From positions 1 through 27,214 of IMG/VR virus record IMGVR_UViG_3300025652_000424: a stretch of 27,214 nucleotides of DNA. One strand, 5' to 3'. The DNA is from a virus. Its lineage: Duplodnaviria; Caudoviricetes. Both the position numbers and the translations under genes were made by a program. Shown one piece after another: positions 962 to 18,642 of the stretch (position 1 is the stretch's first letter; every line of letters begins with the position of its first letter). The notes below the pieces were generated by a model. It had not been told where the DNA came from. It made no database searches and saw only the letters and a program-made list of their open reading frames with translations.

Positions 962-1993
962 TTGAGAACAAAACGAGGTGTGGTGCGAGGAGTGGTGGAT
1001 GGCTACAGCAGCTATTCATTGCATTTAATAAGAGTCATTGAGGGACTCACTAAATTAGGCCGTGACATACACTGTTGGCCAGTGCGAAGCGAGGCAGGTA
1101 AGGCTCCTATACCGAGAGTGGTGATGGAGTCTGTTGTGCATAAGGAGCAGCAGGATGACTGGGAGATGATTGTTCATTGCCCATCGTTTAGTCCTACAGG
1201 AAAAAAGCAGCTTGTGTATAACACAATGTGGGAGAGCACGAGGCTTCACAAGGAGGCAGTGCTTAACTTGAATCAGGCAGATCTGATTGTTGTGCCGAGT
1301 GACTTTAATTTGTGCTTGTTTAATGCACAGGGAATCAGGAAGACGATGGTCAAGGTTCCTATGGGGATAGACACAGATGTCTTCCACTACAGGCCACAGA
1401 AACAGGGCTCTGAGTTTGTTTTTGGTGTAGCGGGAAGGACAGCGGCAGGAGGCTGCAGGAAAGGCTTTGAGGACGTTCTAAGGGCGTGGAAGAAAGCATT
1501 CCCTAAGAGGGTAAAAGATGTCAGGTTAAGCATTAAGTGTTTTCCCGATGACCCTGTAATGGATGTCGATGATGACAGAATAAGTTTTACTCGTCAGTTC
1601 TGGACAAGGAAAGATCTGGCTAACTGGTATGCAGGGCTTGATTGCTTTGTGAGTGCGTCGAAAGGCGAGGGATGGGGTCTCATGCAGCATGAGGCTATGG
1701 CCACAGGAAGGCCAGTCATTGCAGTTCCCTTCGGGGGAATTACAGAGTACTTTGATGAGTCAGTAGGTTACCCTGTTGACTTTGACTTGAGAGAGTCTGA
1801 GGCGCATTACTCTAATGGCGGTCTCTGGGCAGTCCCTAAACAGGACAGCCTTATAGACCGAATGAGGGAGGTCCGCAACGAGAGAGGTGTAGCAAAAGCG
1901 TTGAGAGCTTCAGAGCGAGGAATGAAGCTTAACTGGGAGAACAGCAATAAAAAGCTAGACTCAGTCTTAAGTAAAATTGGATTTTATACATGA
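962..1993 (+). CDS. GT-B fold glycosyltransferase (GT4 / Glycos_transf_1-like)
   Basis: Motifs GIDTDVF, RKGFEDVLRAW and DCFVSASKGEGWGLMQHEAMATGRPVI (E-x7-E nucleotide-sugar-binding signature); TTG start. Confidence 0.9.
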   Translation: MRTKRGVVRGVVDGYSSYSLHLIRVIEGLTKLGRDIHCWPVRSEAGKAPIPRVVMESVVHKEQQDDWEMIVHCPSFSPTGKKQLVYNTMWESTRLHKEAVLNLNQADLIVVPSDFNLCLFNAQGIRKTMVKVPMGIDTDVFHYRPQKQGSEFVFGVAGRTAAGGCRKGFEDVLRAWKKAFPKRVKDVRLSIKCFPDDPVMDVDDDRISFTRQFWTRKDLANWYAGLDCFVSASKGEGWGLMQHEAMATGRPVIAVPFGGITEYFDESVGYPVDFDLRESEAHYSNGGLWAVPKQDSLIDRMREVRNERGVAKALRASERGMKLNWENSNKKLDSVLSKIGFYT

Positions 1994-6537: not shown

Positions 6538-6975
6538 ATGCACTTCGACCACTCCATAAAAGAAGACTTCATGCGTCTGACTCATAACAATGAGCAGGCG
6601 TGGTTGTTCGTGGAGACATTCGCTACAAGGTCTCATGACATTGATGACTTCATTGATGGCGATAAGAAGATAAATGACGAGGATGTGATCAAGGCTGAGA
6701 TGGACTGGATGGTCACACTCACAAGCAATCAATTCTACATATCCAACAGCAGCTTTCTTCTCCCCCTAATTATCATGAGCTGCAATGCGTGGCTTGATGC
6801 GAACAAGTGGGAGCTGTCAAACGTAGAAGTAAAGAGAGCACACTCCGATGTGCTCAAGAGTCAATATCACGAGGTTATATTTGCAACCGTTTACCTGTGC
6901 GGCGGCTGGAATGCGATGAGAGAATTCACAAAACTACACAGGCAATACCAGACAGACAATTATGGGACTATATAG
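6538..6975 (+). CDS. Small all-alpha protein with a DDxxD motif (class I isoprenoid synthase/prenyltransferase-like)
   Basis: ATG at 6538 immediately follows the upstream TAA. HDIDDFIDGD (DDxxD at 6643-6657) sits at the end of a predicted helix; the sequence looks helical throughout. Confidence 0.55.
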   Translation: MHFDHSIKEDFMRLTHNNEQAWLFVETFATRSHDIDDFIDGDKKINDEDVIKAEMDWMVTLTSNQFYISNSSFLLPLIIMSCNAWLDANKWELSNVEVKRAHSDVLKSQYHEVIFATVYLCGGWNAMREFTKLHRQYQTDNYGTI

Positions 6976-8014
6976 CGCAGACGCTCCTCCCCCACGGGAT
7001 TACGCGAAAGAAACAAGAGACACTTTGCAGGCGCAGGTAGACCTCGCACCAGAGCTCTACGCTGCAGAGGCTAGTCAAGAATACGGCAGGCCAGCAGAGG
7101 CAAGGCTGAACCTTGAGATCCTTCGGGATGTCATGAGAGGTAGTCAAGGGACTCCCGGTCTTCTTGAGCTCTATGAGCAGGACATAATGCCCGGGCTCGC
7201 CAGAGCCGATGTAGCTGGTCTTGATGTCTCAAGGGAAGGCGATATAGCAGCAGTCGAAAGGCTAGGCCCTAGAGCCACTGAGGCCTTCAGGCAAGCCAAC
7301 CCAGAGCAGGCCGCATTAATGGCAGAGCTTAACAGGCAGGCTCAATCTGATCTGTCCGCAGGAGCAGGGCTACCACCATCACTGTCTCGTGAGCTTGATC
7401 AGTTCATTCGTGGAGCCCAGTCTGACCGTGGTATGGGCTACGGAATGGCAGACCTAGGTCAGGAAGCTCTTATTAAAGGAATGAACGCAGAGCAACTTCA
7501 GCGCAACCGTCGATCATTCGCTTCTCAGGTGGTAGGTCTTAATGCTGCTACTTCAGCAGATCCGTTTATGGCTATTCTCGGTAAGCCCGGTGTAGGTATG
7601 GGAGCAGCTCAAGGGTTTGCAGCGCAAGGTCAAGGTATGGTCCCACAGCAATCGTTTAACCCTGAATCAGCATACGCGGGAAGTCTTGCCGCTGGTAACT
7701 ACAATGCAGAGCTCAATGCGAACATTGCATCTGCCAATGCGCGCGCTGCCGTTGCCAGTGGAGCTATGAAGTCTATGGGGTCAATAACATCAGCTATGAT
7801 AACCAAATGCTGGGTGGCTCGAGAAGTCTATGGAGCGAATAACCCAATGTGGCTACTGTTCAGGAACTGGCTTGAAACGCAATCACCAGTCTGGTTCCAC
7901 GATCTCTACGTCAAATACGGCCAACGATTCGCTGGCTGGCTATCTAAGAATGAATGGTTGAAGCCTTCCATCAAGAAGTGGATGGACTCACGCATTAAGA
8001 AACTGATCGCATAA
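6962..8014 (+). CDS. Internal virion / DNA ejection (pilot-type) protein with a C-terminal CFI-box-like domain
   Basis: MG start, PPPRDY, A/Q/G-rich helical body and a hydrophobic Ala/Gly segment, then CWVAREVYG...FRNWL...LYVKYGQRFA...LKP.IKKWM at 7808-8014; ejection-module position. Confidence 0.65.
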   Translation: MGLYSADAPPPRDYAKETRDTLQAQVDLAPELYAAEASQEYGRPAEARLNLEILRDVMRGSQGTPGLLELYEQDIMPGLARADVAGLDVSREGDIAAVERLGPRATEAFRQANPEQAALMAELNRQAQSDLSAGAGLPPSLSRELDQFIRGAQSDRGMGYGMADLGQEALIKGMNAEQLQRNRRSFASQVVGLNAATSADPFMAILGKPGVGMGAAQGFAAQGQGMVPQQSFNPESAYAGSLAAGNYNAELNANIASANARAAVASGAMKSMGSITSAMITKCWVAREVYGANNPMWLLFRNWLETQSPVWFHDLYVKYGQRFAGWLSKNEWLKPSIKKWMDSRIKKLIA

Positions 8015-8018
8015 CACT

Positions 8019-9452
8019 ATGGCATTTTCACAACAATCATATACAGGACAGGGAATCGTTCAGCCTACCGAGAGATCTCGTGTAGGTGAGTTTCTCGGTG
8101 AAGGACTTGCAGGTCTGGGATCAGGTATTGGTCAAGGGATAGAGAAGTTCGCTCAAAGAAAAGAAGAGATGAAGAAGCGTGAGCAGTTCAAGAAAGGAAC
8201 TATCACAGCTCTGACTGCTCTCGGTGCAGATGCAGATCTTCTTAAGGGAATGGAGGCTACAGAACTTGCGGCCTACGCTCAGATGTATCCTCAAATTTCT
8301 GAAGGTAAGTTTTACTCAGAGTTTGTAGAAGCAAGTCAGCCTCAAGATGTTCCCGTTGACTTTGCTCCTCAAATTGCCGAGAAGGAAGCACAGCTACAAA
8401 GAGCTCAAGAGGAGTCTATTTTTAGGCCTGAGTTCAAGTTTACAGCCGATAAGTTTACTGACTCTGTCAGTGACTCAGAAGCTGGCAGATCTTTGGCAGA
8501 GTCTGAAGCTAGGGCTCTTGAAAGATTCAGTCTCCCGTCATCAGCCGTCAATGCGTTCGCTCCTTACGGAGCAGGGGCGATGCCTAGGCAGACTCAAGCG
8601 CCACTCCCTGAGACCGCAAGATCACCAGAAATCGTAGCTCGAGAAGAGATGCAGGCTATGAGAAGGTATGCTGCCCCTGTGCAAACATATCAGCCAGCTC
8701 CGAGTCGAGCTCAAGGCCCCTTAGGCCCTGAAGCTATGCCCGGTCCTTCTGAGACTGTAGTGAAAGCAGCTAAGGATCTTGAACTGCTAAAAGTAGCAGA
8801 GCAGAAAGGTGAGACAAGATCGGAGACAGCTACTGAGGTCAGAGACAGGTTAATCAAGGATATACCAAATCTTGTCAAAGAGAATCCGTTGATGGCAAAG
8901 CAGGCTTACGAACTGTTGTATGATCAGGACAACAAGCTGACGTTTGAGAACAAGCTATCTCTTCTCAAGTATCAAGACTCAGTGAAGTCTAGGTTTATCC
9001 CCGGGCTAGGAACTGCTCCGTCTGTAGAGACAGCAAAAGAAATGAGGACTCTGCAGTTAGCAGATGATCAGATTCAAACAGGTATTGGAAGGCTCCTTGA
9101 GATTCTTGACACTCCCGGCAAAAGGCTTGACTTCAATCTCAAAAAAGAGGCTAACACTATCGTGGGTCTTCTCACTGGAGCTCTACGTGTTCCTATTGTT
9201 GGCCCCGGCGCATTCTCTGAGTCCGAAAAGGAAATGATCGAGAAGATTATAGCAAACCCAACAAAGCTATTCAGCATTGATAGTAATACAAGAACATCAC
9301 TAAACACTCTATCAACAAGAATGAGGGCTGACAGGGACTCTTACGCCAAATTAATTGGACTGGATCCCTATCAAGAAGGAACTGCTTCCGGTCAGCAAGC
9401 ATCAGACGTAAGCCGTATGTCTTTTAACACTTCCACTGGTTTAATTGAATGA
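8019..9452 (+). CDS. Internal virion / ejection protein
   Basis: N-terminal Gly-rich amphipathic segment (GEGLAGLGSGIGQGIE) followed by a charged coiled coil, a Pro/Ala-rich middle and a helical C-terminus; lies between the pilot-like and giant internal proteins. Confidence 0.6.
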   Translation: MAFSQQSYTGQGIVQPTERSRVGEFLGEGLAGLGSGIGQGIEKFAQRKEEMKKREQFKKGTITALTALGADADLLKGMEATELAAYAQMYPQISEGKFYSEFVEASQPQDVPVDFAPQIAEKEAQLQRAQEESIFRPEFKFTADKFTDSVSDSEAGRSLAESEARALERFSLPSSAVNAFAPYGAGAMPRQTQAPLPETARSPEIVAREEMQAMRRYAAPVQTYQPAPSRAQGPLGPEAMPGPSETVVKAAKDLELLKVAEQKGETRSETATEVRDRLIKDIPNLVKENPLMAKQAYELLYDQDNKLTFENKLSLLKYQDSVKSRFIPGLGTAPSVETAKEMRTLQLADDQIQTGIGRLLEILDTPGKRLDFNLKKEANTIVGLLTGALRVPIVGPGAFSESEKEMIEKIIANPTKLFSIDSNTRTSLNTLSTRMRADRDSYAKLIGLDPYQEGTASGQQASDVSRMSFNTSTGLIE

Positions 9453-12400
9453 AAGAAATATTCGTAGAGGACTATAACACTGTTGTCGAGTTCCCTGACG
9501 AAACTTCCAATGCAACCATTGAGTCATCGCTCAGGAAAAAGTTTCCAGAAACAGACGAGAAACTGGTAGCTCGATTCGAGAATCCAGACACGCCATCGTC
9601 CTCTCTTACCCGGGAGGACTTTGTCCGTTATAGGGCTGCAAAGCCTGAGATGCAGTGGTCAGAGTTTCCCGGCCTTGTAGCTCAAGCCGCTGGCGTAACT
9701 GTTCAGAGGATCGCGGAGAATCTCCCGGCGGCCATAGGCACATACATGAACATATTTGATCCCGGCACTTCTGCTCGCACCTTTATGGAGGGAGCTGCCC
9801 GGGGAGCCTATGACACAGAGATTCTCGGCAGGATGGCTAATGACTATCTGGGGTCGAAGCTGGATTCATTCGGGGGAACAAGTGAGAACGAGACCACTGA
9901 TCAGTTCAACAACTTTCTCAAACTCAAAGAACTTCAGAATGTCAGAGGTGGTATCGAGCGAGGTGAGGAGTCTGCGTGGAATGAATACGCAGAGTTTGCT
10001 GGTATGGATGCAGCAAAGATTGACCTCGAGAAAGTAGATACCAAGGCAGCAGAGCTCACGGGTGAATTTATTGACCCCAGTCTTTTAATCCCTGCAGGCA
10101 AGGTGGGGTCAATAGCCGCTAAAGGTATTACTAAGGGGCTATCTGCCCCAACAATTGCAGTGGGTAAAGGGCTGTCAAGGGCGGCAGACCTGAGCAGAGA
10201 CGCTATCGAGCGAGGCAAGAACATTGTCAAAGGAGCTTCAGAAACAATTGATGAAGCAACGGGAGGCCTAGCTAACGTGGCAGTTCCCGGCGGCATAGGT
10301 GCAGCGGTAGCTAGTGGCATTGTTGGAGCAGGCACAGCTAAGACTTTTGGCACAGTGCTGGCAGCTCCTACTATTCTTGATGTCTCAGGAGGACTTCTGC
10401 GCGGTTTCGGAGAGGCAATGTCCAGCAGCCCTACAAGGACAGGTGGTCTAGGAAGACTAGCTTTACATCAGCCTGATACAGTCGCGGGTAAACTTGCGGG
10501 CAGACTCAAGTGGCTGGATAAACCTGTTGAGTATGCAGGCAGAGCTACCGCTGGTGCTGCAGTAGGTGCAGGGATTGGCGGCGCTATAGGATTAGCCTCA
10601 GGAGGCCTCGAGGGACTCGCGCAGGGTATTGGGTCTGGCGGCGTTCTCGGTGCCTTTGGTGGTGGTGTAGGGAGGGCTGCAGAGGGCCTAACAGGGTCAG
10701 CACTCCGTAGAGCTCAAGACAATGACTTTAATCAGTGGATCGAGACCAAAACCCCAGAGGACAGGGTGAGACTTGAGAAACTTTCCAGAGAAGACAAGAT
10801 TGCAAGAATGGATGCAGAGCAGATCTTGTTGCAGTCATCCGTGGAAGTCAGGCATGTGGATCCTGACTTTGTTGTGGATGAAGCAAAAGGCACCAAGATG
10901 GGCGAGGCAAGCGGCATGATGCGTATCGAGGCAGGCAAGCCAGTTGTGTTCCTTAACACAAACGCAGGCACACGCACAATGCTTCATGAGACCCTACACG
11001 CTCTAGGCAGGCTCGACGGATTTGACACGCTCGTCTCGAACGTGAAGAACACTTTCCAGAGAATGTATTCTGCTGAAGAAATGAACAACTTCATTCAGCA
11101 GTATGAGAAGCGTCTGGATTCAGAGATTGGCGTTGATCCTCAAAGAGCTCAGAAACTGAAGGACGCAGGATCCACTGACGCAAAGGTAGACTACATTCTT
11201 GAGGAGCTGGCCGCAGAATACTTCGCAAACTACATCACAGGAAAGAACAGCAACTACATCTTTTCAGGCAACAGCTTTTCAGAGTCACTGAAAGGCGCTT
11301 TCTCTCGGTTCACCAAAGGCAAACTTGACCGAGTCTATGACGCATTCCAGAGCCCTATCTTCGATCAACAGATCAAGCAGTCTCGACAGCTCGACAGAGC
11401 TATGAAGGATTTGGTCAAGGCTCGCAAGAAAGCAGGCAGAGACGTTGAGACATCGCTGAATGAGCCCGTCAAGGTTTACTCAGACGCTGATCTTGCAGAT
11501 GACGCTACCTTCGCAGAGCTCGAGGCAATGGGAGTCGCAAAGACTGACGCCAAAGGCAAGCGCTTCATCATGAAAGATGCCGAGCAGAAGCGTGTGGCCA
11601 AAGAAAGGGCTACAACTATCGGCGGTATCCTAGACAACGTCAGTGAACCTAAAGATATTCCCGTAGAAAAAGACAGCTCAAAAGAGAAAGACAGCGGGAG
11701 AGGCGGGGCCAAAGGCCGGGGAGCAGGCAAAAGAAAAGGTAAGCGAAGAGGGAGAGGCAAGAGCAGAAGCAAAGAGAAAGACAGATCTCAGGGAATCGAG
11801 CCTGAAGGCGGCCTCGTTAAGCAGCCAGACGGAAGCTACAAGGGGACTAGGTTTAGTGCGGGACAGCTCAAGGCATTGCTCGATTCTCCGCTGATCAATG
11901 ACACTATCAAGGAAGCCTTAAGGCAGCTTGATAAAATTTCTCGGTCAGACCAATACGTCAACATTACTTACGGGGCTTCATCAATGAAGACCAAGTTGGG
12001 CAAGACTAAAGCAAGGAACTTGCCCATCAGCAATCGCAATGGCCTGATATATGACATTGTCATCAGTCCCAAGACAGGAACTATTGCTGGTAGGATTCTT
12101 GACATGAGCACTACTGAGACCAGAGCCAGTAGACTCTACAGGGAGAGCGCAGAGATGCAGAAGGTCTTCGGGTCCGAGGCTAACATGTTTGCAGACCTGC
12201 ACACATACATCAACGCCCTGACTGCTGGTGAGAAACGCACAGCAGAAATCCTAGGCAGCCAACGCAAGAGCGACTTCCTTAACAAGATTCTAGCTATCAG
12301 GAACGTCAAGGGTAACCCTGAGATACCGCAGGTAGAGCTTACACCCAGACAGAGAAGACTGCAGGAAGGCAAGCAGGATCACCCGTGGAGATCGTTCCGT

Positions 12401-15400
12401 CTTGACCGCATTGTTGCTATGCAGCAGAAGGAAGGAAGGCCAGTCATGTCATTCTCTGAGGCTGCCTACCAGAGAGGGCAGACACACTTCATGCCTGATG
12501 TAGACCCGAATGGATACAGGATGGCTCACAGGGCTCCTGACGGCACGTATGACGAGGGCTCCATCGACAAGATGGACACTGTTTACCCCAAAGATATATA
12601 CAGCGCAAACGGTGCTAGGTATTACGGGCAAGATGACTTTGAGAGTAGGAAGACAATACAACTTTTCAGAAGTCTACGTGGAAAACCTGAAGCCGAGCTT
12701 ACGATTTACAGGGCAGTTCCCAAAGGAGTCTCTGAGGTGATAAACCCGGGAGATTGGGTGACACCGTCAAAGCAGTATGCAGAGCTTCATGCAAATTATT
12801 TTGACGAAACAGGCGCAGTCATTCTTGAGAAGAAAGTTAAGGCTAAGGAAGTCTACTCCGAGGGCAATAGTATCTTTGAGTTTGGGTGGAATCCTAAGGC
12901 CCCGGGAGACGCACGGTTCTCACCCGGCACTGGCCGTAGCAAGACTGATCAGGATTACCTGAAGGCTGCTAAGGCGAAGGTAAAGGATTACGACAAGCTT
13001 CAAGATATAGTAAATCAAAACGCTGAAAATGCAGGCTACACTATTGGCCCTGTATACCACGGCACCAAGCGTGAATTCAATGAATTCAAATCAGAGCGAG
13101 ACCCTAACAAGTTAATATATCTTTCTTTCGATAAGCAGTTCTCAAAAGAGTATGCGCGAGGATTTGGTGGTCACAGAAAACCGGATCCCTCTGTAATGAA
13201 AAAGATTGATGAAGCTGATGATGCTTCAACAAGGCTTTTCAAATCAGAACTTGATGCATTGACTGAAAAATACGGAGCTGATTACGCTATCCCTAGCTCC
13301 AGTATGCAATCTGCTATTAACAAATCAAAAAACCTTGAAAGATCGATGCTCGACGGAATGACAGCAACTCAAGCTAGATCTGAAATGGGCATAAGAGTCA
13401 TTAACTCATTCCTTAAAGCAGATAAAGTTTTCGACCCTAAAGACGGGTGGAGTGAGTTTTCAGACACAATCTCGAATCACTTCGGAGTCTCTAACATTAA
13501 CGAGCTAGACCCTCGGGCTCTAAAGATGCTGAATGAAGGGGACTATATAGCGTGGGAGCCTTCCAGAATTATTGATGAAGTGTTCAAGAAGTATGACGCT
13601 ATCAGGCTTGCAGAAGAACCCGGCGGCCCGTCAAACACCATAGCAGTCAGGGATCCTGAGCGCATTAAGTCTGCTGACCCTATAACCTATGAAGATGATG
13701 GCAGCATCATTCCTCCGTCTGAAAGATTCAAGGACACCACTGCAGACATCCGCTTCTCACCTGAGCCTGACAGCCCCGCAGAGGTCAGGAAACAAATGCA
13801 GGAGCCCGTTGAGTCTGGCACTCCTATGAATGGAGTGTTCACACTTACACCCGATGTCATAGCCAGATTCAGTCCCGCAGTAAATGATCCCGGCGTCAAC
13901 CTTGAGCAGCTAAACGGTAAGAAAGTTTTCTTCATGTTTGCTGACCGTATGCTGGTTGGTGACTACGTCACTCGGTCAGGTAGAGTATTTAAACTGAGAG
14001 GAGGGCCTGATCACCCAGACCTTGCAGACAATCAAGGTAAGATTGCGTGGGCTGTTGAGGGAGGGGCTATAGGATCTAGGCTCGATAAAGCTATCAGGAT
14101 GACTGACGGTATCGGAATTGTTGTTCTTCAAGATGAGCTGGCAGTTGCATCGAACAAAGACTACTCGGAGGTCATGATGGAAGAGCTGAAGTTTGATATG
14201 GAGAACAACCCGGCAGTCAAAAGAGACCTGAAAGAGCTGCTTGAAGACATGTCTGCCGCAATCCGTCAAACAATCAAGAAAAACAGACTCAGCAAAGACT
14301 CTAGAGACAAAGCAACAGCAGAAAAAGCTGGCAAAAACTTTACTCCATCGAAGCCTAAGAAATGGGAGAAGATTGAAATTAAAAGCCTCAAAGACCTTGA
14401 GAGCGTTTTCCCAGAAATGCCTTTCGAGGTCAGGAAGACTATGTGGCAGAAGTTCGCTTCCAAAAAATACAAAAATAAATACGGAGGCATTTTCTGGAAG
14501 GATGTTGCCGAAGGCATGTCCGCTTACAGGGAGAAAGACGGATACAGGACTGGCGACATCGTAAAGGCAATTCAGTTCGATCAATCGGGGCCATCGTCGC
14601 TAGTTGATCCTCGTGACTTAGGTTTGCCTGTTCACCCTTCTTACAGGCTGGGAGTTCTTGGTAAATCAATTTCAAACATTAAGGGAAGGCTGAGTGTTTT
14701 CGATTTACTACGCAAGCAGTTTGAGAATCGGGTTGACCCGGTCACTGGCGCACCAAAGTTAGACCAGAGAGTTTCCAAAGAGGGTGATATAGGAAAGTCT
14801 TCATTCAGGACGCTAAGTATGAGGAGCCTAACTGACCCAGAATTCCAACCAACAATCACTCCCAAAATTCTTGACCCACGCACACACAAGAATCCGGTGA
14901 AACAAAAGTATGGGTCATCATTGGGTAAAGCTAGGGTTGAGGCAATGAAGAAAGCCCGAAAGGACGCCAACAAGTTCTCTCCTGCGATGGACCCTCTGCC
15001 TGCAAGCGCAGAGACCCAAAGGTCTGATGTTACTTCTCGAAGCTACGAGAAATTCAGTGGCATGATCGACGATGAAGTCACTGTGCTCGACGCAGGCGCT
15101 GGAGAGGGCGCAGGATCGAGGATCATGAGAAAAGGTAACAGGACAGTAGACACGCTGGAACCGTTCCCTTACGGATCCTCAGGGGATAACAGAGCTAACT
15201 GGAAAGATGACCAGTCTCCTACTTATCTGGCTATGGATGAAGTTCCATCAGACAGCTATGATGTCATATCATCTTTCTCTGTTGTTAACGTATTGAAGCC
15301 AGAGCAAAGGACTGATCTCATACAGGGGATTGGTAGAGCCCTGAAACCCGGCGGCAAGGCTCACATCAAGTCAAGGACACCGGGAGATGTCAGGGCAGCT

Positions 15401-16294
15401 AAGTCTAAGAAATCTGCGGGAGAGAAGAACGCTTACCTAGTAAAGCAGAAGTCCGGTGACTATGCGTATCAGGTAGGCTTTACTCAGGGAGGATTGAAGT
15501 CAGAAATCCAGAACACACTCGGAGACGGATTCACCGTCGAGAGTGGGAAGGGGCTTGCGGGATCCTACGTGGTTGTGACGAAGTCAGGAGCAGGAAGCGA
15601 AGGCGCTAAGTTTTCCCCGGCGATGATGGATGCAGAGTATGCTAAGGCTATTCAATCGGGAGATACTGAAACCGCCAGAAGACTGGTGGATGATGCAGCA
15701 AGGGAAGCTGGATATGACACCGAGCAAATCGCGTATCACGGCACGGACAAAAATTTTGATAAGTTCGATGTTTCAGACAGTGTAGGAATATGGACTGGCA
15801 CGGAAAGTGTCGCAAGCTTGTTTGCAAGACTGAAATCATTTAGGTCAAAGAGAAGCCCTAGAGTCATTAAGGCTTACGTTAAGTCGAACAATCCAGCAAG
15901 TAACATTGGTTTGGGTTTGAAGGTTAGAGGTGAAGAAGCAGTGAAACAACGAGAGATGCTGAAAGCAAAAGGATTCGATAGTATCATCAAGGATGGTAAA
16001 TACCTAATTTTATTTGACCCTAACCAAATCAAGTCTGCTGATTTGAAGACTTATGATGATAAAGGGAACCTCATACCACTCTCTCAAAGATTTAACAGTC
16101 AGTCTGATGACATTCGATTCTCCCCGGCAAGATCTCTCAACAACAGAGGAGGAGCAGTTTATAACACTCCAGAAGGCCACAGGGCTGTGCAGACATCCAG
16201 CCGCGCAGGAGTGAGGGTCTACGGCCCAACAGGACGCCGTATAGGCCCTGTGTTTGGATCCGTTGAAGCAGCCGAGCGGTATCTAAGCAAGTAA
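9449..16294 (+). CDS. Large polyvalent internal virion protein (2281 aa): Gly-rich membrane-like region, zincin metallopeptidase, three ART-like domains, an unknown domain and a class I SAM methyltransferase
   Basis: N-terminal VEFPD motif; Gly-zipper hydrophobic region at about 10270-10690; HETLH (10985-10999) plus EELAAE (11201); IYRAVP..NPGDWVT..YA domain; two YHGT...IKSAD domains; VLDAGAGEG...YDVISSFSVVNVL methyltransferase motifs. Confidence 0.85.
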   Translation: MKEIFVEDYNTVVEFPDETSNATIESSLRKKFPETDEKLVARFENPDTPSSSLTREDFVRYRAAKPEMQWSEFPGLVAQAAGVTVQRIAENLPAAIGTYMNIFDPGTSARTFMEGAARGAYDTEILGRMANDYLGSKLDSFGGTSENETTDQFNNFLKLKELQNVRGGIERGEESAWNEYAEFAGMDAAKIDLEKVDTKAAELTGEFIDPSLLIPAGKVGSIAAKGITKGLSAPTIAVGKGLSRAADLSRDAIERGKNIVKGASETIDEATGGLANVAVPGGIGAAVASGIVGAGTAKTFGTVLAAPTILDVSGGLLRGFGEAMSSSPTRTGGLGRLALHQPDTVAGKLAGRLKWLDKPVEYAGRATAGAAVGAGIGGAIGLASGGLEGLAQGIGSGGVLGAFGGGVGRAAEGLTGSALRRAQDNDFNQWIETKTPEDRVRLEKLSREDKIARMDAEQILLQSSVEVRHVDPDFVVDEAKGTKMGEASGMMRIEAGKPVVFLNTNAGTRTMLHETLHALGRLDGFDTLVSNVKNTFQRMYSAEEMNNFIQQYEKRLDSEIGVDPQRAQKLKDAGSTDAKVDYILEELAAEYFANYITGKNSNYIFSGNSFSESLKGAFSRFTKGKLDRVYDAFQSPIFDQQIKQSRQLDRAMKDLVKARKKAGRDVETSLNEPVKVYSDADLADDATFAELEAMGVAKTDAKGKRFIMKDAEQKRVAKERATTIGGILDNVSEPKDIPVEKDSSKEKDSGRGGAKGRGAGKRKGKRRGRGKSRSKEKDRSQGIEPEGGLVKQPDGSYKGTRFSAGQLKALLDSPLINDTIKEALRQLDKISRSDQYVNITYGASSMKTKLGKTKARNLPISNRNGLIYDIVISPKTGTIAGRILDMSTTETRASRLYRESAEMQKVFGSEANMFADLHTYINALTAGEKRTAEILGSQRKSDFLNKILAIRNVKGNPEIPQVELTPRQRRLQEGKQDHPWRSFRLDRIVAMQQKEGRPVMSFSEAAYQRGQTHFMPDVDPNGYRMAHRAPDGTYDEGSIDKMDTVYPKDIYSANGARYYGQDDFESRKTIQLFRSLRGKPEAELTIYRAVPKGVSEVINPGDWVTPSKQYAELHANYFDETGAVILEKKVKAKEVYSEGNSIFEFGWNPKAPGDARFSPGTGRSKTDQDYLKAAKAKVKDYDKLQDIVNQNAENAGYTIGPVYHGTKREFNEFKSERDPNKLIYLSFDKQFSKEYARGFGGHRKPDPSVMKKIDEADDASTRLFKSELDALTEKYGADYAIPSSSMQSAINKSKNLERSMLDGMTATQARSEMGIRVINSFLKADKVFDPKDGWSEFSDTISNHFGVSNINELDPRALKMLNEGDYIAWEPSRIIDEVFKKYDAIRLAEEPGGPSNTIAVRDPERIKSADPITYEDDGSIIPPSERFKDTTADIRFSPEPDSPAEVRKQMQEPVESGTPMNGVFTLTPDVIARFSPAVNDPGVNLEQLNGKKVFFMFADRMLVGDYVTRSGRVFKLRGGPDHPDLADNQGKIAWAVEGGAIGSRLDKAIRMTDGIGIVVLQDELAVASNKDYSEVMMEELKFDMENNPAVKRDLKELLEDMSAAIRQTIKKNRLSKDSRDKATAEKAGKNFTPSKPKKWEKIEIKSLKDLESVFPEMPFEVRKTMWQKFASKKYKNKYGGIFWKDVAEGMSAYREKDGYRTGDIVKAIQFDQSGPSSLVDPRDLGLPVHPSYRLGVLGKSISNIKGRLSVFDLLRKQFENRVDPVTGAPKLDQRVSKEGDIGKSSFRTLSMRSLTDPEFQPTITPKILDPRTHKNPVKQKYGSSLGKARVEAMKKARKDANKFSPAMDPLPASAETQRSDVTSRSYEKFSGMIDDEVTVLDAGAGEGAGSRIMRKGNRTVDTLEPFPYGSSGDNRANWKDDQSPTYLAMDEVPSDSYDVISSFSVVNVLKPEQRTDLIQGIGRALKPGGKAHIKSRTPGDVRAAKSKKSAGEKNAYLVKQKSGDYAYQVGFTQGGLKSEIQNTLGDGFTVESGKGLAGSYVVVTKSGAGSEGAKFSPAMMDAEYAKAIQSGDTETARRLVDDAAREAGYDTEQIAYHGTDKNFDKFDVSDSVGIWTGTESVASLFARLKSFRSKRSPRVIKAYVKSNNPASNIGLGLKVRGEEAVKQREMLKAKGFDSIIKDGKYLILFDPNQIKSADLKTYDDKGNLIPLSQRFNSQSDDIRFSPARSLNNRGGAVYNTPEGHRAVQTSSRAGVRVYGPTGRRIGPVFGSVEAAERYLSK
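11681..11784 (+). repeat. 14-bp perfect direct repeat AAAGAGAAAGACAG (11681-11694, 11771-11784) flanking an R/G/K-rich coding segment
   Basis: Read directly; the copies are 90 nt (30 codons) apart and both encode KEKD. Confidence 0.85.
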
Positions 16295-16411: not shown

Positions 16412-16900
16412 TCATGTCAAAATGTTTTTTGCGGGTATTCCTACGTGAGTTCCTGCGTCTACGTCTTTACATACGACAGCGCCTGCACCAATTACACTGC
16501 GACTGCGGATAGTTACACCGGGAAGAACAATTGCTCCTGCTCCTATAGATACACCGTCCTCGATTGTCACTCCTTCGCACAGCCAATCATCTGCCGTCTT
16601 TATTGATCCGTCTTCATTAATCGCTGATGGATACCTATCGTTTGCAAGAATTACTCCCGGCCCTATAAACACACCGGACCCTATGACTGAGCCTTTGTAT
16701 ATGTTGGATCCGTTTTGGATTTTACAGTTACGCCCTACAGTCACTGACTCGTCTATAAACACTCCCTTCCCGATAGTGGTTCCACTGCCCACACGCGCAA
16801 GTTTACGTATGTGAGCAAAGTGCCATACGATGACGCCCTCTTCTATCAGGCAGCCGTCTTCTACAATTGCGGTTTCATGAATAGTCACAGCAGGTCTCAT
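16412..16900 (-). CDS. Hexapeptide-repeat (left-handed beta-helix) N/O-acyltransferase, WbpD/WxcM-like
   Basis: Likely start at 16900 (MRPAVTIHETAIVE). Motifs VWHFAHI, VGRNCKIQN, VFIGPGVILANDRYP, IGAGAIVLPGVTI and VIGAGAVVCKDV...GIPA. Confidence 0.9.
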   Translation of the reverse strand: MRPAVTIHETAIVEDGCLIEEGVIVWHFAHIRKLARVGSGTTIGKGVFIDESVTVGRNCKIQNGSNIYKGSVIGSGVFIGPGVILANDRYPSAINEDGSIKTADDWLCEGVTIEDGVSIGAGAIVLPGVTIRSRSVIGAGAVVCKDVDAGTHVGIPAKNILT

Positions 16901-17792
16901 TACACTTCGGTTCCTTTCCGTCCCAGTCAAATTCAAAAACAAATTTATAGACAAAATGAGGGACACCGTAATCGCTAAACTCCCCCCAGTTTTTCCATAG
17001 TCTTATGCACTCTTCTGGTGCTTGTTTAAGGGCTGTCCATAGAGAAATATCTTTCATAGAAACGTCAAGTTTGCTTTTTAAAATCTTCCATTCTTCAGCT
17101 TCCTTTCCTGTGAAATCATGTTCTACAGGGAAACTTAACCCGTGAATAAACGCGCTTTTGCTTCTGCTTTTAATACCTTTGTAGTGATTCCACGGGAGGG
17201 GCTGGTAAACCGATTGACCTTCATTTCTAAAAGCATAGTGAGTAGCTCTGTAATCTATTGAGAATTCCTTAGTCTTTCTGATTAGCTTAGGTTGAACAAA
17301 GTTTTCCTGAGGATACAGTAAGTGCCTCCAGTTATTTTTCACCGTGTGAAAAGCAGAGTCACCCACAAGGTCACCTTGTTCGTTAAACCAATGCCCTCTG
17401 CAGGGTAACATGTAACTTGAGATGCCTAGTGAATTAGCGTCATTGATAATCCTCTCAAGATTATCGAGCAATGGTTTTGAGGGACATTCATCGCTATCGC
17501 ATTGCATGACCCATTCTTCGCTAGGAATAGTATCAAGTCCTACATCATTGCAGATAGGGAGCACACAATCTAACTCCCTCTTCATGTAGTTTACAGAGTG
17601 TTCACGGGCGACATCCTCCGTAGAGTCAGTGCTTCCTGTGTCTATTAGTATAATACTGTCAAAATAGTTTTTGCACCTTTCAAATAAAGTGTCTAAAAGT
17701 TCTGAACGATTGTCTGCTCCTGTGGTGATTAACAGATGTTTTTTACTGCAGTCCCCAGAAGGCTGAATATCTGGTTTAAATATGGAACCCAT
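16875..17792 (-). CDS. GT-A fold glycosyltransferase (GT2-like)
   Basis: IILIDTGSTDSTEDVA and WVMQCDSDE (DxD) motifs, similar to WaaE-like LPS glycosyltransferases. Confidence 0.85.
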   Translation of the reverse strand: MGSIFKPDIQPSGDCSKKHLLITTGADNRSELLDTLFERCKNYFDSIILIDTGSTDSTEDVAREHSVNYMKRELDCVLPICNDVGLDTIPSEEWVMQCDSDECPSKPLLDNLERIINDANSLGISSYMLPCRGHWFNEQGDLVGDSAFHTVKNNWRHLLYPQENFVQPKLIRKTKEFSIDYRATHYAFRNEGQSVYQPLPWNHYKGIKSRSKSAFIHGLSFPVEHDFTGKEAEEWKILKSKLDVSMKDISLWTALKQAPEECIRLWKNWGEFSDYGVPHFVYKFVFEFDWDGKEPKCNETCCDYS

Positions 17793-18642
17793 AAGCTTCT
17801 TTTAAATGGTTAAGCGAGTTTTTAAAAAAATCATTGTCAGGTGGTGTATAAGAAACTGAAGACTGATGGAAAGGCATGTCAGCAAACCCCCGACTAGAAA
17901 AAAATTCCTTTGTCCCGTGAGCACCTATTTCTCCAATATATTTAGCACAATTGGCAACCGTGCTGATAGGTATCTGTTTGTTTTTCAGCATGACATTATA
18001 AAGCAAAGAATCGTTAACGGATCCTTCAGTCTTCTTCCCCCCCAAACTTCTGACATGCTCGAGAACTTTCTCTATATCGGATTCTTTATGTTTGTGGAAA
18101 ACTTTTGACCACTCAGCCATATTATCCCTCCACATTGCCCATCGAGATTTCCAGATCCCTACGCCCCACAAGTGGCCGCAAGTTGTCAGGCAGTCTAAGT
18201 AAGGGTCATGCTCTTCTTTATTTCTTTCAGAAAATGCAGAGACCATACCTACCCTGAAGTCATCCTTAAATTTGTAGAGCATTTTGTTAACAGTATCGAT
18301 GTAGTATTTACTTAAGACAAGGTCATCTTCGATGACTATAATCTCATCGTAATGCAGGAAGTCGAAGACCGTTGAAAGCATAGCAGCCCACTGAAGCCCG
18401 CACCCGGCATTGACTGAATTCTGGTATATCCTAGCGTTTGGAAATACCTCTAAAGCTATAGCTCTGCTCCTTTCGACTAACTTAGCATTCCCTGCAGAAG
18501 ACTCCCCCTTCTCAGTGTTAACGGCCCCATCTAAAAAGATTATAACGTCTTCATCTGTCACTTGAGGCTTCACGCTTAGACATGTTTGTATGAAGTAATC
18601 TGGTCTGTTATAGGCCATTAAGACTATCGCTTTCTTGAGCAT
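17776..18642 (-). CDS. GT-A fold glycosyltransferase (GT2/GnT-I-like)
   Basis: IVLMAYNRPDY, IIFLDG, NAGCG, IIVIEDDL and LWGVGIWKSRW motifs. Confidence 0.85.
   Translation of the reverse strand: MLKKAIVLMAYNRPDYFIQTCLSVKPQVTDEDVIIFLDGAVNTEKGESSAGNAKLVERSRAIALEVFPNARIYQNSVNAGCGLQWAAMLSTVFDFLHYDEIIVIEDDLVLSKYYIDTVNKMLYKFKDDFRVGMVSAFSERNKEEHDPYLDCLTTCGHLWGVGIWKSRWAMWRDNMAEWSKVFHKHKESDIEKVLEHVRSLGGKKTEGSVNDSLLYNVMLKNKQIPISTVANCAKYIGEIGAHGTKEFFSSRGFADMPFHQSSVSYTPPDNDFFKNSLNHLKEAYGFHI

Follow-up and report, generated by a model that had tools for sequence, protein, structure and literature searches.

Locus and Gene Neighborhood

The analyzed stretch, referred to below as the window, comprises the 27,214 bases of the linear virus record IMGVR_UViG_3300025652_000424, which is 67% complete according to CheckV. 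Profile searches identified a terminase, replication genes, and structural genes of tail type. The tail genes are followed by three genes encoding proteins of 350, 477, and 2281 amino acids (aa), of which the last, the giant gene, is described here (Table 1). It lies amid the virion genes of a terminase-portal phage, as shown by the terminase and structural matches in the window and by the scaffold and capsid genes of the relative G004. In that relative, scaffold and major capsid genes lie behind a likely portal gene, and there is also an integrase; these features suggest a short-tailed, probably temperate phage. An opposite-strand block carrying the integrase and an endolysin was observed between the likely portal and scaffold genes of G004 (L044:6474-11042).

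Short-tailed phages keep their ejection proteins behind the tail genes. Judging from gene position, the 2281-aa protein is likely an ejection protein delivered to the host by injection, and the two genes upstream of it likely encode further ejection proteins. Packaging of the giant protein in the virion and its injection are suggested by two pointers, the gene position and the hydrophobic head. Glycosyltransferase and acyltransferase genes were also found nearby, one of them among the tail genes and the others in an opposite-strand block past the giant gene; they possibly serve virion or host-surface modification.

Public runs containing the giant gene were labeled as freshwater, marine, sediment, and sponge metagenomes, and less than 0.2 of its sequence words were present in the public RNA runs. 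No cultured phage matching the constant part of the protein was found among 50,697 phage records. The single GTDB match was a 19-kb contig in a Rhodospirillaceae MAG; since this contig has the same size and match as the viral locus L017, it provides weak evidence for the host.

Table 1. Features of the giant gene and its surroundings in the window.
Feature	Position	Strand	Remarks
GT4 glycosyltransferase gene	962..1993	+	among tail genes
Two genes upstream of giant gene	6962..8014 and 8019..9452	+	tag-free; ejection role by position
Giant gene	9449..16294	+	ORF, 2281 aa; last of three genes after tail genes
Constant head	9449..10765	+	aa 1-439; Gly/Ala-rich hydrophobic stretches from aa 270 to ~390
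Zincin-fold domain (predicted)	10766..11458	+	aa 440-670; HETLH at 10985-10999, E585/E586 at 11201-11206
Lys/Arg/Gly-rich insertion	11642..11797	+	aa 732-783; disorder predicted; many relatives lack it; no tags at its borders
WYL-fold (Sm/SH3 barrel) domain (predicted)	11816..12484	+	aa 790-1012; helical insert; RFSA at 11849-11860; conserved FRLDR
Tag 1, HFMP	12485..12496	+	aa 1013; closes constant frame; position shared with cargo-free relatives
Cassette M6	12497..12913	+	143 aa tag to tag; phrog_2579-like
Tag 2, RFSP	12914..12925	+	aa 1156
Cassette ART-PolyVal 1	12926..13750	+	279 aa tag to tag; core varies between conserved flanks
Tag 3, RFSP	13751..13762	+	aa 1435
Acidic cassette M5	13763..13864	+	38 aa in all 24 copies
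Tag 4, RFSP	13865..13876	+	aa 1473; Ser codon AGT
Cassette M4	13877..14971	+	369 aa tag to tag; no family match (Pfam, NCBIfam)
Tag 5, KFSP	14972..14983	+	aa 1842
Cassette class I SAM methyltransferase	14984..15607	+	212 aa tag to tag; PF13489, E 6e-10
Tag 6, KFSP	15608..15619	+	aa 2054
Cassette ART-PolyVal 2	15620..16114	+	169 aa tag to tag; Pfam E 1.3e-10
Tag 7, RFSP	16115..16126	+	aa 2223
Constant basic tail	16127..16294	+	55 aa; in 41 of 43 proteins
Hexapeptide acyltransferase and two GT-A-like genes	16412..18642	-	opposite-strand block past giant gene

The Constant Frame

Comparison of related sequences showed that the protein combines swappable cassettes with a constant frame, which is made up of the hydrophobic head, the predicted zincin- and WYL-fold domains, and the basic tail. 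When the proteins were split at the motif described below, the head was constant in 41 of 43 proteins, as was the tail, and the middle was variable. The tail, previously given as 56 aa, measures 55 aa past the last Pro. The head had no match in Pfam or NCBIfam and would likely insert into the membrane.

An HETLH...EELAAE zincin upstream of the motif copies had been noticed earlier, and further analysis supported this assignment. HETLH occupies aa 513–517 and EELAAE aa 585–590; the site residues H513, E514, H517, and E585/E586, that is, the HExxH helix and a downstream Glu ligand, are conserved. Among the 45 frame homologues covering the site (47 aligned), both zinc histidines and the Glu of the HE motif were kept in 43. 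In the AlphaFold model (pLDDT about 70), a three-stranded sheet precedes the active-site helix. The structural matches among 48,161 chains were mostly zincins but of middling quality, with the best at Z 7.2 (rmsd 3.6, 137 aligned) and others including ArdC (5.6), PprI (5.6), and PPEP-2 (5.5). The best Foldseek E-value was 1.5e-3, and the MPTase-PolyVal profile of Pfam covered the HExxH region at E 0.15 (12.6 bits versus a cut-off of 27.5); the PDB sequence search returned uninformative matches only. The model predicts a zincin fold for aa 440–670, and peptidase activity is predicted for them.

In the AlphaFold model, which spans aa 440–1160 (mean pLDDT 61.6), a disordered linker separates the zincin-like domain from a second domain, which closes with a helix directly before HFMP. 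A fold search with this second region placed PafBC, BrxR, DriD, and CapW in the top nine of the 48,161 chains (Z 7.4–9.3), and the best match aligned 94 residues at Z 9.3 and rmsd 2.8. No WYL profile of Pfam or NCBIfam matched, and the ESM Atlas gave no usable match for the region; in the model, a large helical insert splits the barrel. On the strength of the structural comparison, aa 790–1012 are predicted to form a WYL fold, which the earlier note had overlooked. WYL domains bind single-stranded nucleic acids and act allosterically. In the P0018–P0023 group, an unrelated charged insertion adjoins the place that is occupied in the window by the 52-aa insertion between the zincin and WYL domains.

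Five relatives of 1001–1025 aa are cargo-free and consist of head, zincin, WYL, and tail, with 22–34% identity in the frame. Four of the five carry a tag between the WYL domain and the tail, and the fifth reads NFSE at this position; an aromatic-x-Pro sequence stands at the WYL end in 39 of the 44 frame homologues reaching that point. Retention of the tag by cargo-free relatives indicates that it does not depend on cargo. The tag may have come first, with cassettes entering at it later, an order that we infer rather than derive from a tree. The tail domain occurs twice in P0083, P0183, P0186, and P0189, as an internal and a C-terminal copy, and in three of these proteins the internal copy lies directly behind the WYL-end tag.

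The Seven Tags

Seven copies of a four-residue motif had been reported in the C-terminal part of the protein. Translation of the ORF located every one of them where it had been described, six as [RK]FSP and one as HFMP. The six [RK]FSP copies compare with 0.048 expected from composition and with a maximum of three in 20,000 shuffles, and no tripeptide of the protein is more enriched than FSP. All 42 homologues contained two to six xFSP copies, although some of these counts include a helix-cap copy near aa 800. No [RK]FSP was found in other ORFs of eight genome sets, including the two neighboring genes.

The claim that the first ~1000 aa are free of the motif requires a qualification: RFSA is present at aa 801 and reads NFSP or RFSP in distant relatives. 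As a joint it was rejected, because it caps a helix inside the WYL fold and varies to SLSD and RMSL. A MYSP that relatives carry near aa 539 is situated within an insert of the zincin and was left out of the tag counts. The near-matches NFTP (aa 1630) and EFQP (aa 1798) are located inside a module. Within M4, a tag-like xFTP (NFTP, KFTP, EFTP, or DFTP) recurs in several relatives at the place corresponding to 14336–14347. Decayed tags (RFST, RFIP, and RFTP) were seen at times.

Two other views of the motif were discarded. As a part of the ART fold it would not be expected to close unrelated modules and to change with the protein that hosts the module, as it does; the view of it as a fixed piece of the tail is contradicted by variable spacing between tag and tail. 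The FSP form belongs to a broader family of aromatic-[SMQ]-x tags, of which it is a single variant; the first reading of the sequence did not recognize this. Two tallies are not used as evidence here: the F or Y following 110 of 111 ART ends, which is biased by the choice of seed, and the residue table of the tags, which is fixed by the search pattern.

The tags are conserved as peptides. At 82 junctions in 19 DNA sequences, Ser was present at 74 and was encoded by TCN in 53 cases and by AGY in 21; all codons were used for Arg, Phe, and Pro. A repeat search of the DNA revealed no family that covers the tags, and the one pair overlapping two of them, at 72%, is at chance level. Both results agree with the proposal, made on the basis of differing codons, that selection acts on the peptide, and on both grounds a DNA-repeat or att-like reading of the tags was rejected.

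Cassettes and Their Contents

The cargo comprises two ART-PolyVal modules, one candidate methyltransferase, and three modules without family assignment. The anti-host role that had been proposed for the cargo is conjectural. The two ARTs and the methyltransferase had been recognized from the sequence, and Pfam identified the same two ART-PolyVal domains and one class I methyltransferase; the ART-PolyVal hallmark scored 66.3 bits against a Pfam cut-off of 31.2. Together with the zincin and WYL folds, these domains place unrelated activities in one polypeptide, as in polyvalent proteins. The first module (aa 1017–1155), previously described as ART-like, was not confirmed as such: its sole family match was phrog_2579, “ParB C-terminal domain” (E 5e-31). 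No ART match to M6 was obtained in Pfam, NCBIfam, or PDB sequences, and the fold search barely covered it.

M5 precedes M4 in all 24 copies; M5 could be a functional peptide rather than a spacer. Scores of M4 against the ESM Atlas were 0.81 or less. The AlphaFold model of aa 1110–2281 had a mean pLDDT of 44.9, which is too low for assigning tags 2–7 either to linkers or to folded parts, and a Foldseek search with this low-confidence model returned nothing at E <= 0.001. The relatives with other cargo (P0010, P0014, P0024, P0030, P0042, L017, and L037) carried PF25735 (L5 gp82-like), a weak ASCH-like module, DUF7178, and a module of 500–600 aa without family.

Exchange of Cassettes From Tag to Tag

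The tags had been proposed to mark domain borders and to act as junctions for module swapping. Both proposals held: many homology breaks and clean deletions fall at tags, and cassettes were gained, lost, or swapped from tag to tag in 42 homologues and 18 related loci. Splitting at the motif resolved 43 proteins into mosaics of 29 module families, a count that depends on the motif itself. Two analyses were independent of it. In global alignments with 16 relatives, carried out blind to the motif, deletions ran exactly from tag to tag in nine; of the remaining seven, one had the same layout and six contained replacement modules that fragmented the alignment. In addition, of 411 homology breakpoints located without the motif as input, 189 lay no more than 6 aa from a tag, whereas the random counts averaged 28 and reached 43 at most; the 43 proteins and 18 locus ORFs of this set are kin, and the breakpoints therefore cannot be counted as independent.

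The other 222 breakpoints lay away from tags, many of them inside ART modules. The ART modules of the window exhibit a second level of exchange, with variable cores between conserved N- and C-terminal flanks, and their internal breakpoints lie near the YHG strand and the IKSAD end.

At the nucleotide level, pairs alike on one flank and unlike on the other switched within the tag's 12 bases. Seven joints were found in contigs from eight public runs, and they derive from related phages, as likeness was set at 90: three had both ends at tags (12481 to 12917, 14986 to 16118, and 15610 to 16118), one had a single end at a tag, and three had none. In run X7, the form found in the window and a form without the second ART were both present. 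As far as can be read from these comparisons, cassettes are swapped when crossovers occur within the tag. Recombination between two tags preserves the reading frame, and every new joint again carries a tag; this would account for the clustering of viable swaps at these sites.

The Tag Variant Follows the Frame

When the second ART module served as query, 214 giant proteins were retrieved; the best 120 of the 214 were taken, and 117 of these were new. In 110 giant proteins, including that of the window, the tag found at the protein's own ART end recurred elsewhere in the same protein 225 times versus 82 expected, whereas foreign tags occurred at 0.72 versus 0.65 expected per protein, near the background. 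Variants included FSL, FSR, FMP, FQP, FSM, and FDT, among others. Own tags were enriched downstream of HExxH (127 versus 40 expected) and close to expectation upstream of it (17 versus 14).

Among 61 non-redundant zincin proteins, tags matched in 26 of 54 pairs with similar zincins, in three of 38 pairs with similar ARTs and unlike zincins, and in 135 of 1741 other pairs; the pairs are not independent, and kin share labels. Since zincin similarity marks the whole frame, this comparison does not single out the protease as the reader of the tag. The data do show that a module moving between frames takes the tag of its new frame, a behavior that implies a reader specific to the frame. Agreement between the WYL-end tag and the cargo tags is frequent in distant lineages (FQP with FQP, xMP with FMP), whereas in the clade of the window the WYL-end HFMP and the cargo FSP differ in the middle residue.

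Nineteen of the 110 proteins lacked both HExxH and HExxxH and nevertheless carried their own tag 31 times versus 10.5 expected. Some of them look truncated, and others read HExxE or EExxH. In a sister lineage (L035, L037–L039, and P0109) the site reads HEVGE; most tags are kept, one joint is RYSV, and one is tagless. HExxE or EExxH was also observed in the lineages of P0146, P0122, P0112, P0133, P0055, P0059, P0127, and P0147. Because the motif's Glu is retained and a second Glu takes the place of the missing His, metal binding may survive, and these sequences possibly represent an altered metal site rather than a dead enzyme. P0065, a protein of 2769 aa, has nine FDT tags and no recognizable zincin; its protease may be encoded by a separate gene, or the protein may be truncated.

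Proposed Self-Processing and Alternative Explanations

Many zincins cut before a large hydrophobic residue. This preference would fit the conserved Phe of the tag. The best explanation of the data, to which we assign a probability of about 0.6 on indirect evidence, is that the zincin of the frame cuts at the tags. This evidence consists chiefly of the recurrence of own tags, their sharing among similar zincins, their position downstream of HExxH, and the conservation of both zinc histidines. The protein would be packaged and injected, with its head held in the membrane; the predicted zinc protease would cut each x-F-[S/M]-P tag, and the cassettes would be freed from the membrane-held head. P1 DdrB, which has an MPTase domain and is described as processed in the available text of PMC5512222, is a precedent for cutting, and CapP, an HExxH peptidase, cuts a defined Phe-Arg bond according to the text available to us (10.1101/2022.04.27.489752). 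Two published cases count against self-cutting: N4 virion RNA polymerase has HExxH and is, in the accessible parts of the reports, unprocessed (PMC13434306, PMC13492108), and an ArdC E229A mutant works in conjugation to P. putida, so that its catalytic Glu is dispensable (PMC7213743). Several observations on the tags themselves also weigh against it: the own tags of proteins without HExxH or HExxxH, the tags of the HEVGE lineage, the mismatch between HFMP and FSP in the window, the occasional tag decay, and the 222 breakpoints away from tags. A complex prediction of the zincin (aa 440–671 with Zn) and a two-tag peptide (aa 1425–1481) scored 0.01 and counts neither way.

The WYL fold beside the protease, compared with ssDNA-activated CapP, suggests a nucleic-acid trigger. 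In a more elaborate and tentative form of self-processing, the WYL domain, once ejected, would sense single-stranded nucleic acid and activate the zincin, which would release the enzymes by means of a private code; the same code would be the crossover point, and each lineage would possess a matched protease and tag.

Alternatively, the tags might be docking handles that stay uncut, with a part of the frame (the zincin cleft, the WYL domain, or the tail) or the ejection channel gripping the joints for packing or threading. The persistence of tags in proteins with HExxE or EExxH sites would be consistent with this, as would the link between tag variant and frame, since any reader encoded in the frame could account for it; moreover, in the available text on N4, the polymerase needs its MPTase region for encapsidation and yet is uncut. 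We nevertheless consider docking doubtful, given that 43 of 45 frame homologues retain the HE-motif Glu together with both histidines, with the lost His replaced by Glu in the cases seen, and that tags occur neither upstream of the zincin nor in the two neighboring genes.

Cutting of the tags by another protease, either a phage enzyme acting in trans or a host protease, appears quite unlikely. Tagged proteins without a recognizable zincin, such as P0065, do exist, and trans cutting of head proteins directed by a motif is described for T4, phiKZ, and SPN3US in the accessible text of PMC5694885. However, no prohead protease was recognized in the portal-scaffold-capsid cluster of G004 when its 12 ORFs were compared with PHROGs, several of them being matchless; other virion proteins are tag-free, and prohead proteases cut after Glu, as stated in the same source. 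The tag variant also follows the phage frame, which makes a host enzyme less probable. Finally, an improbable explanation is that the tags are only recombination joints or linker caps, that is, short homology that keeps swaps in frame and has no reader: the crossovers inside 12 bases and the use of F-S-P as a helix cap at aa 801 would agree with it, but the mix of TCN and AGY makes the DNA less alike where the peptide stays the same, no repeat family was found in the DNA, the tag is retained in relatives without cargo, and incoming ART modules adopt the variant of the host protein.

Comparison With Known Systems and Significance

Polyvalent proteins were defined by Iyer 2017 (PMC5512222), where autoproteolytic release by the MPTase was also proposed; the class and the idea of autoprocessing were thus known already, and no site code was found in print, as far as the accessible text of the sources extends. 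The giant protein resembles the phage-type polyvalent proteins of that work in combining unrelated domains in one late-gene protein, in ART-PolyVal, in the HExxH+E site, and in mosaic orthologues. By contrast, the available text is silent on cleavage sites and junction motifs and refers to WYL for CRISPR systems only, whereas here protein-specific tags stand at the joints and a predicted WYL fold belongs to the frame. The literature searched, mostly without subscription journals and supplements, contained neither junction tags in polyvalent proteins nor a zincin-WYL ejection protein.

N4 gp50 is likewise a giant ejection protein with an HExxH subdomain; in the accessible text, it is packaged and purified unprocessed and carries a polymerase, and no cassette exchange or tags are described (PMC13434306, PMC13492108). 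P1 DdrB is a virion protein that has a metallopeptidase domain and is processed, but no sites are given in the text available (PMC5512222). The same holds for phi24B gp47, a polyvalent protein with a metallopeptidase domain detected in virions, whose peptidase is proposed there to cut peptidoglycan (10.64898/2026.04.10.717836). CapP (10.1101/2022.04.27.489752) and PprI/IrrE (10.64898/2026.05.16.725639; PMC10904395), to the extent that the sources were accessible, are nucleic-acid-activated zinc peptidases that cut a defined bond and offer a model for the zincin-WYL pair; in contrast to the giant protein, they are cellular regulators, cleave a repressor in trans, and contain a GAF domain rather than WYL. 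In the prohead processing of T4, phiKZ, and SPN3US, a short motif also directs the cutting of head and ejection proteins, but, in the parts of PMC5694885 available, a separate protease cuts after Glu and removes propeptides from many proteins. The tag described here contains no Glu and is restricted to a single protein, where it stands between the modules.

The tags give exact domain borders for the cargo modules (29 module families in 43 proteins). The seven candidate bonds, the putative catalytic residue E514, the cargo-free versions, and the HExxE variants make the processing question of Iyer directly testable, and the tags would supply matched protease–tag pairs of differing specificity. 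If the nucleic-acid-triggered form of self-processing, which we regard as tentative, were true, any module acquiring the tag would become deliverable, and each lineage would have its own matched protease and tag.
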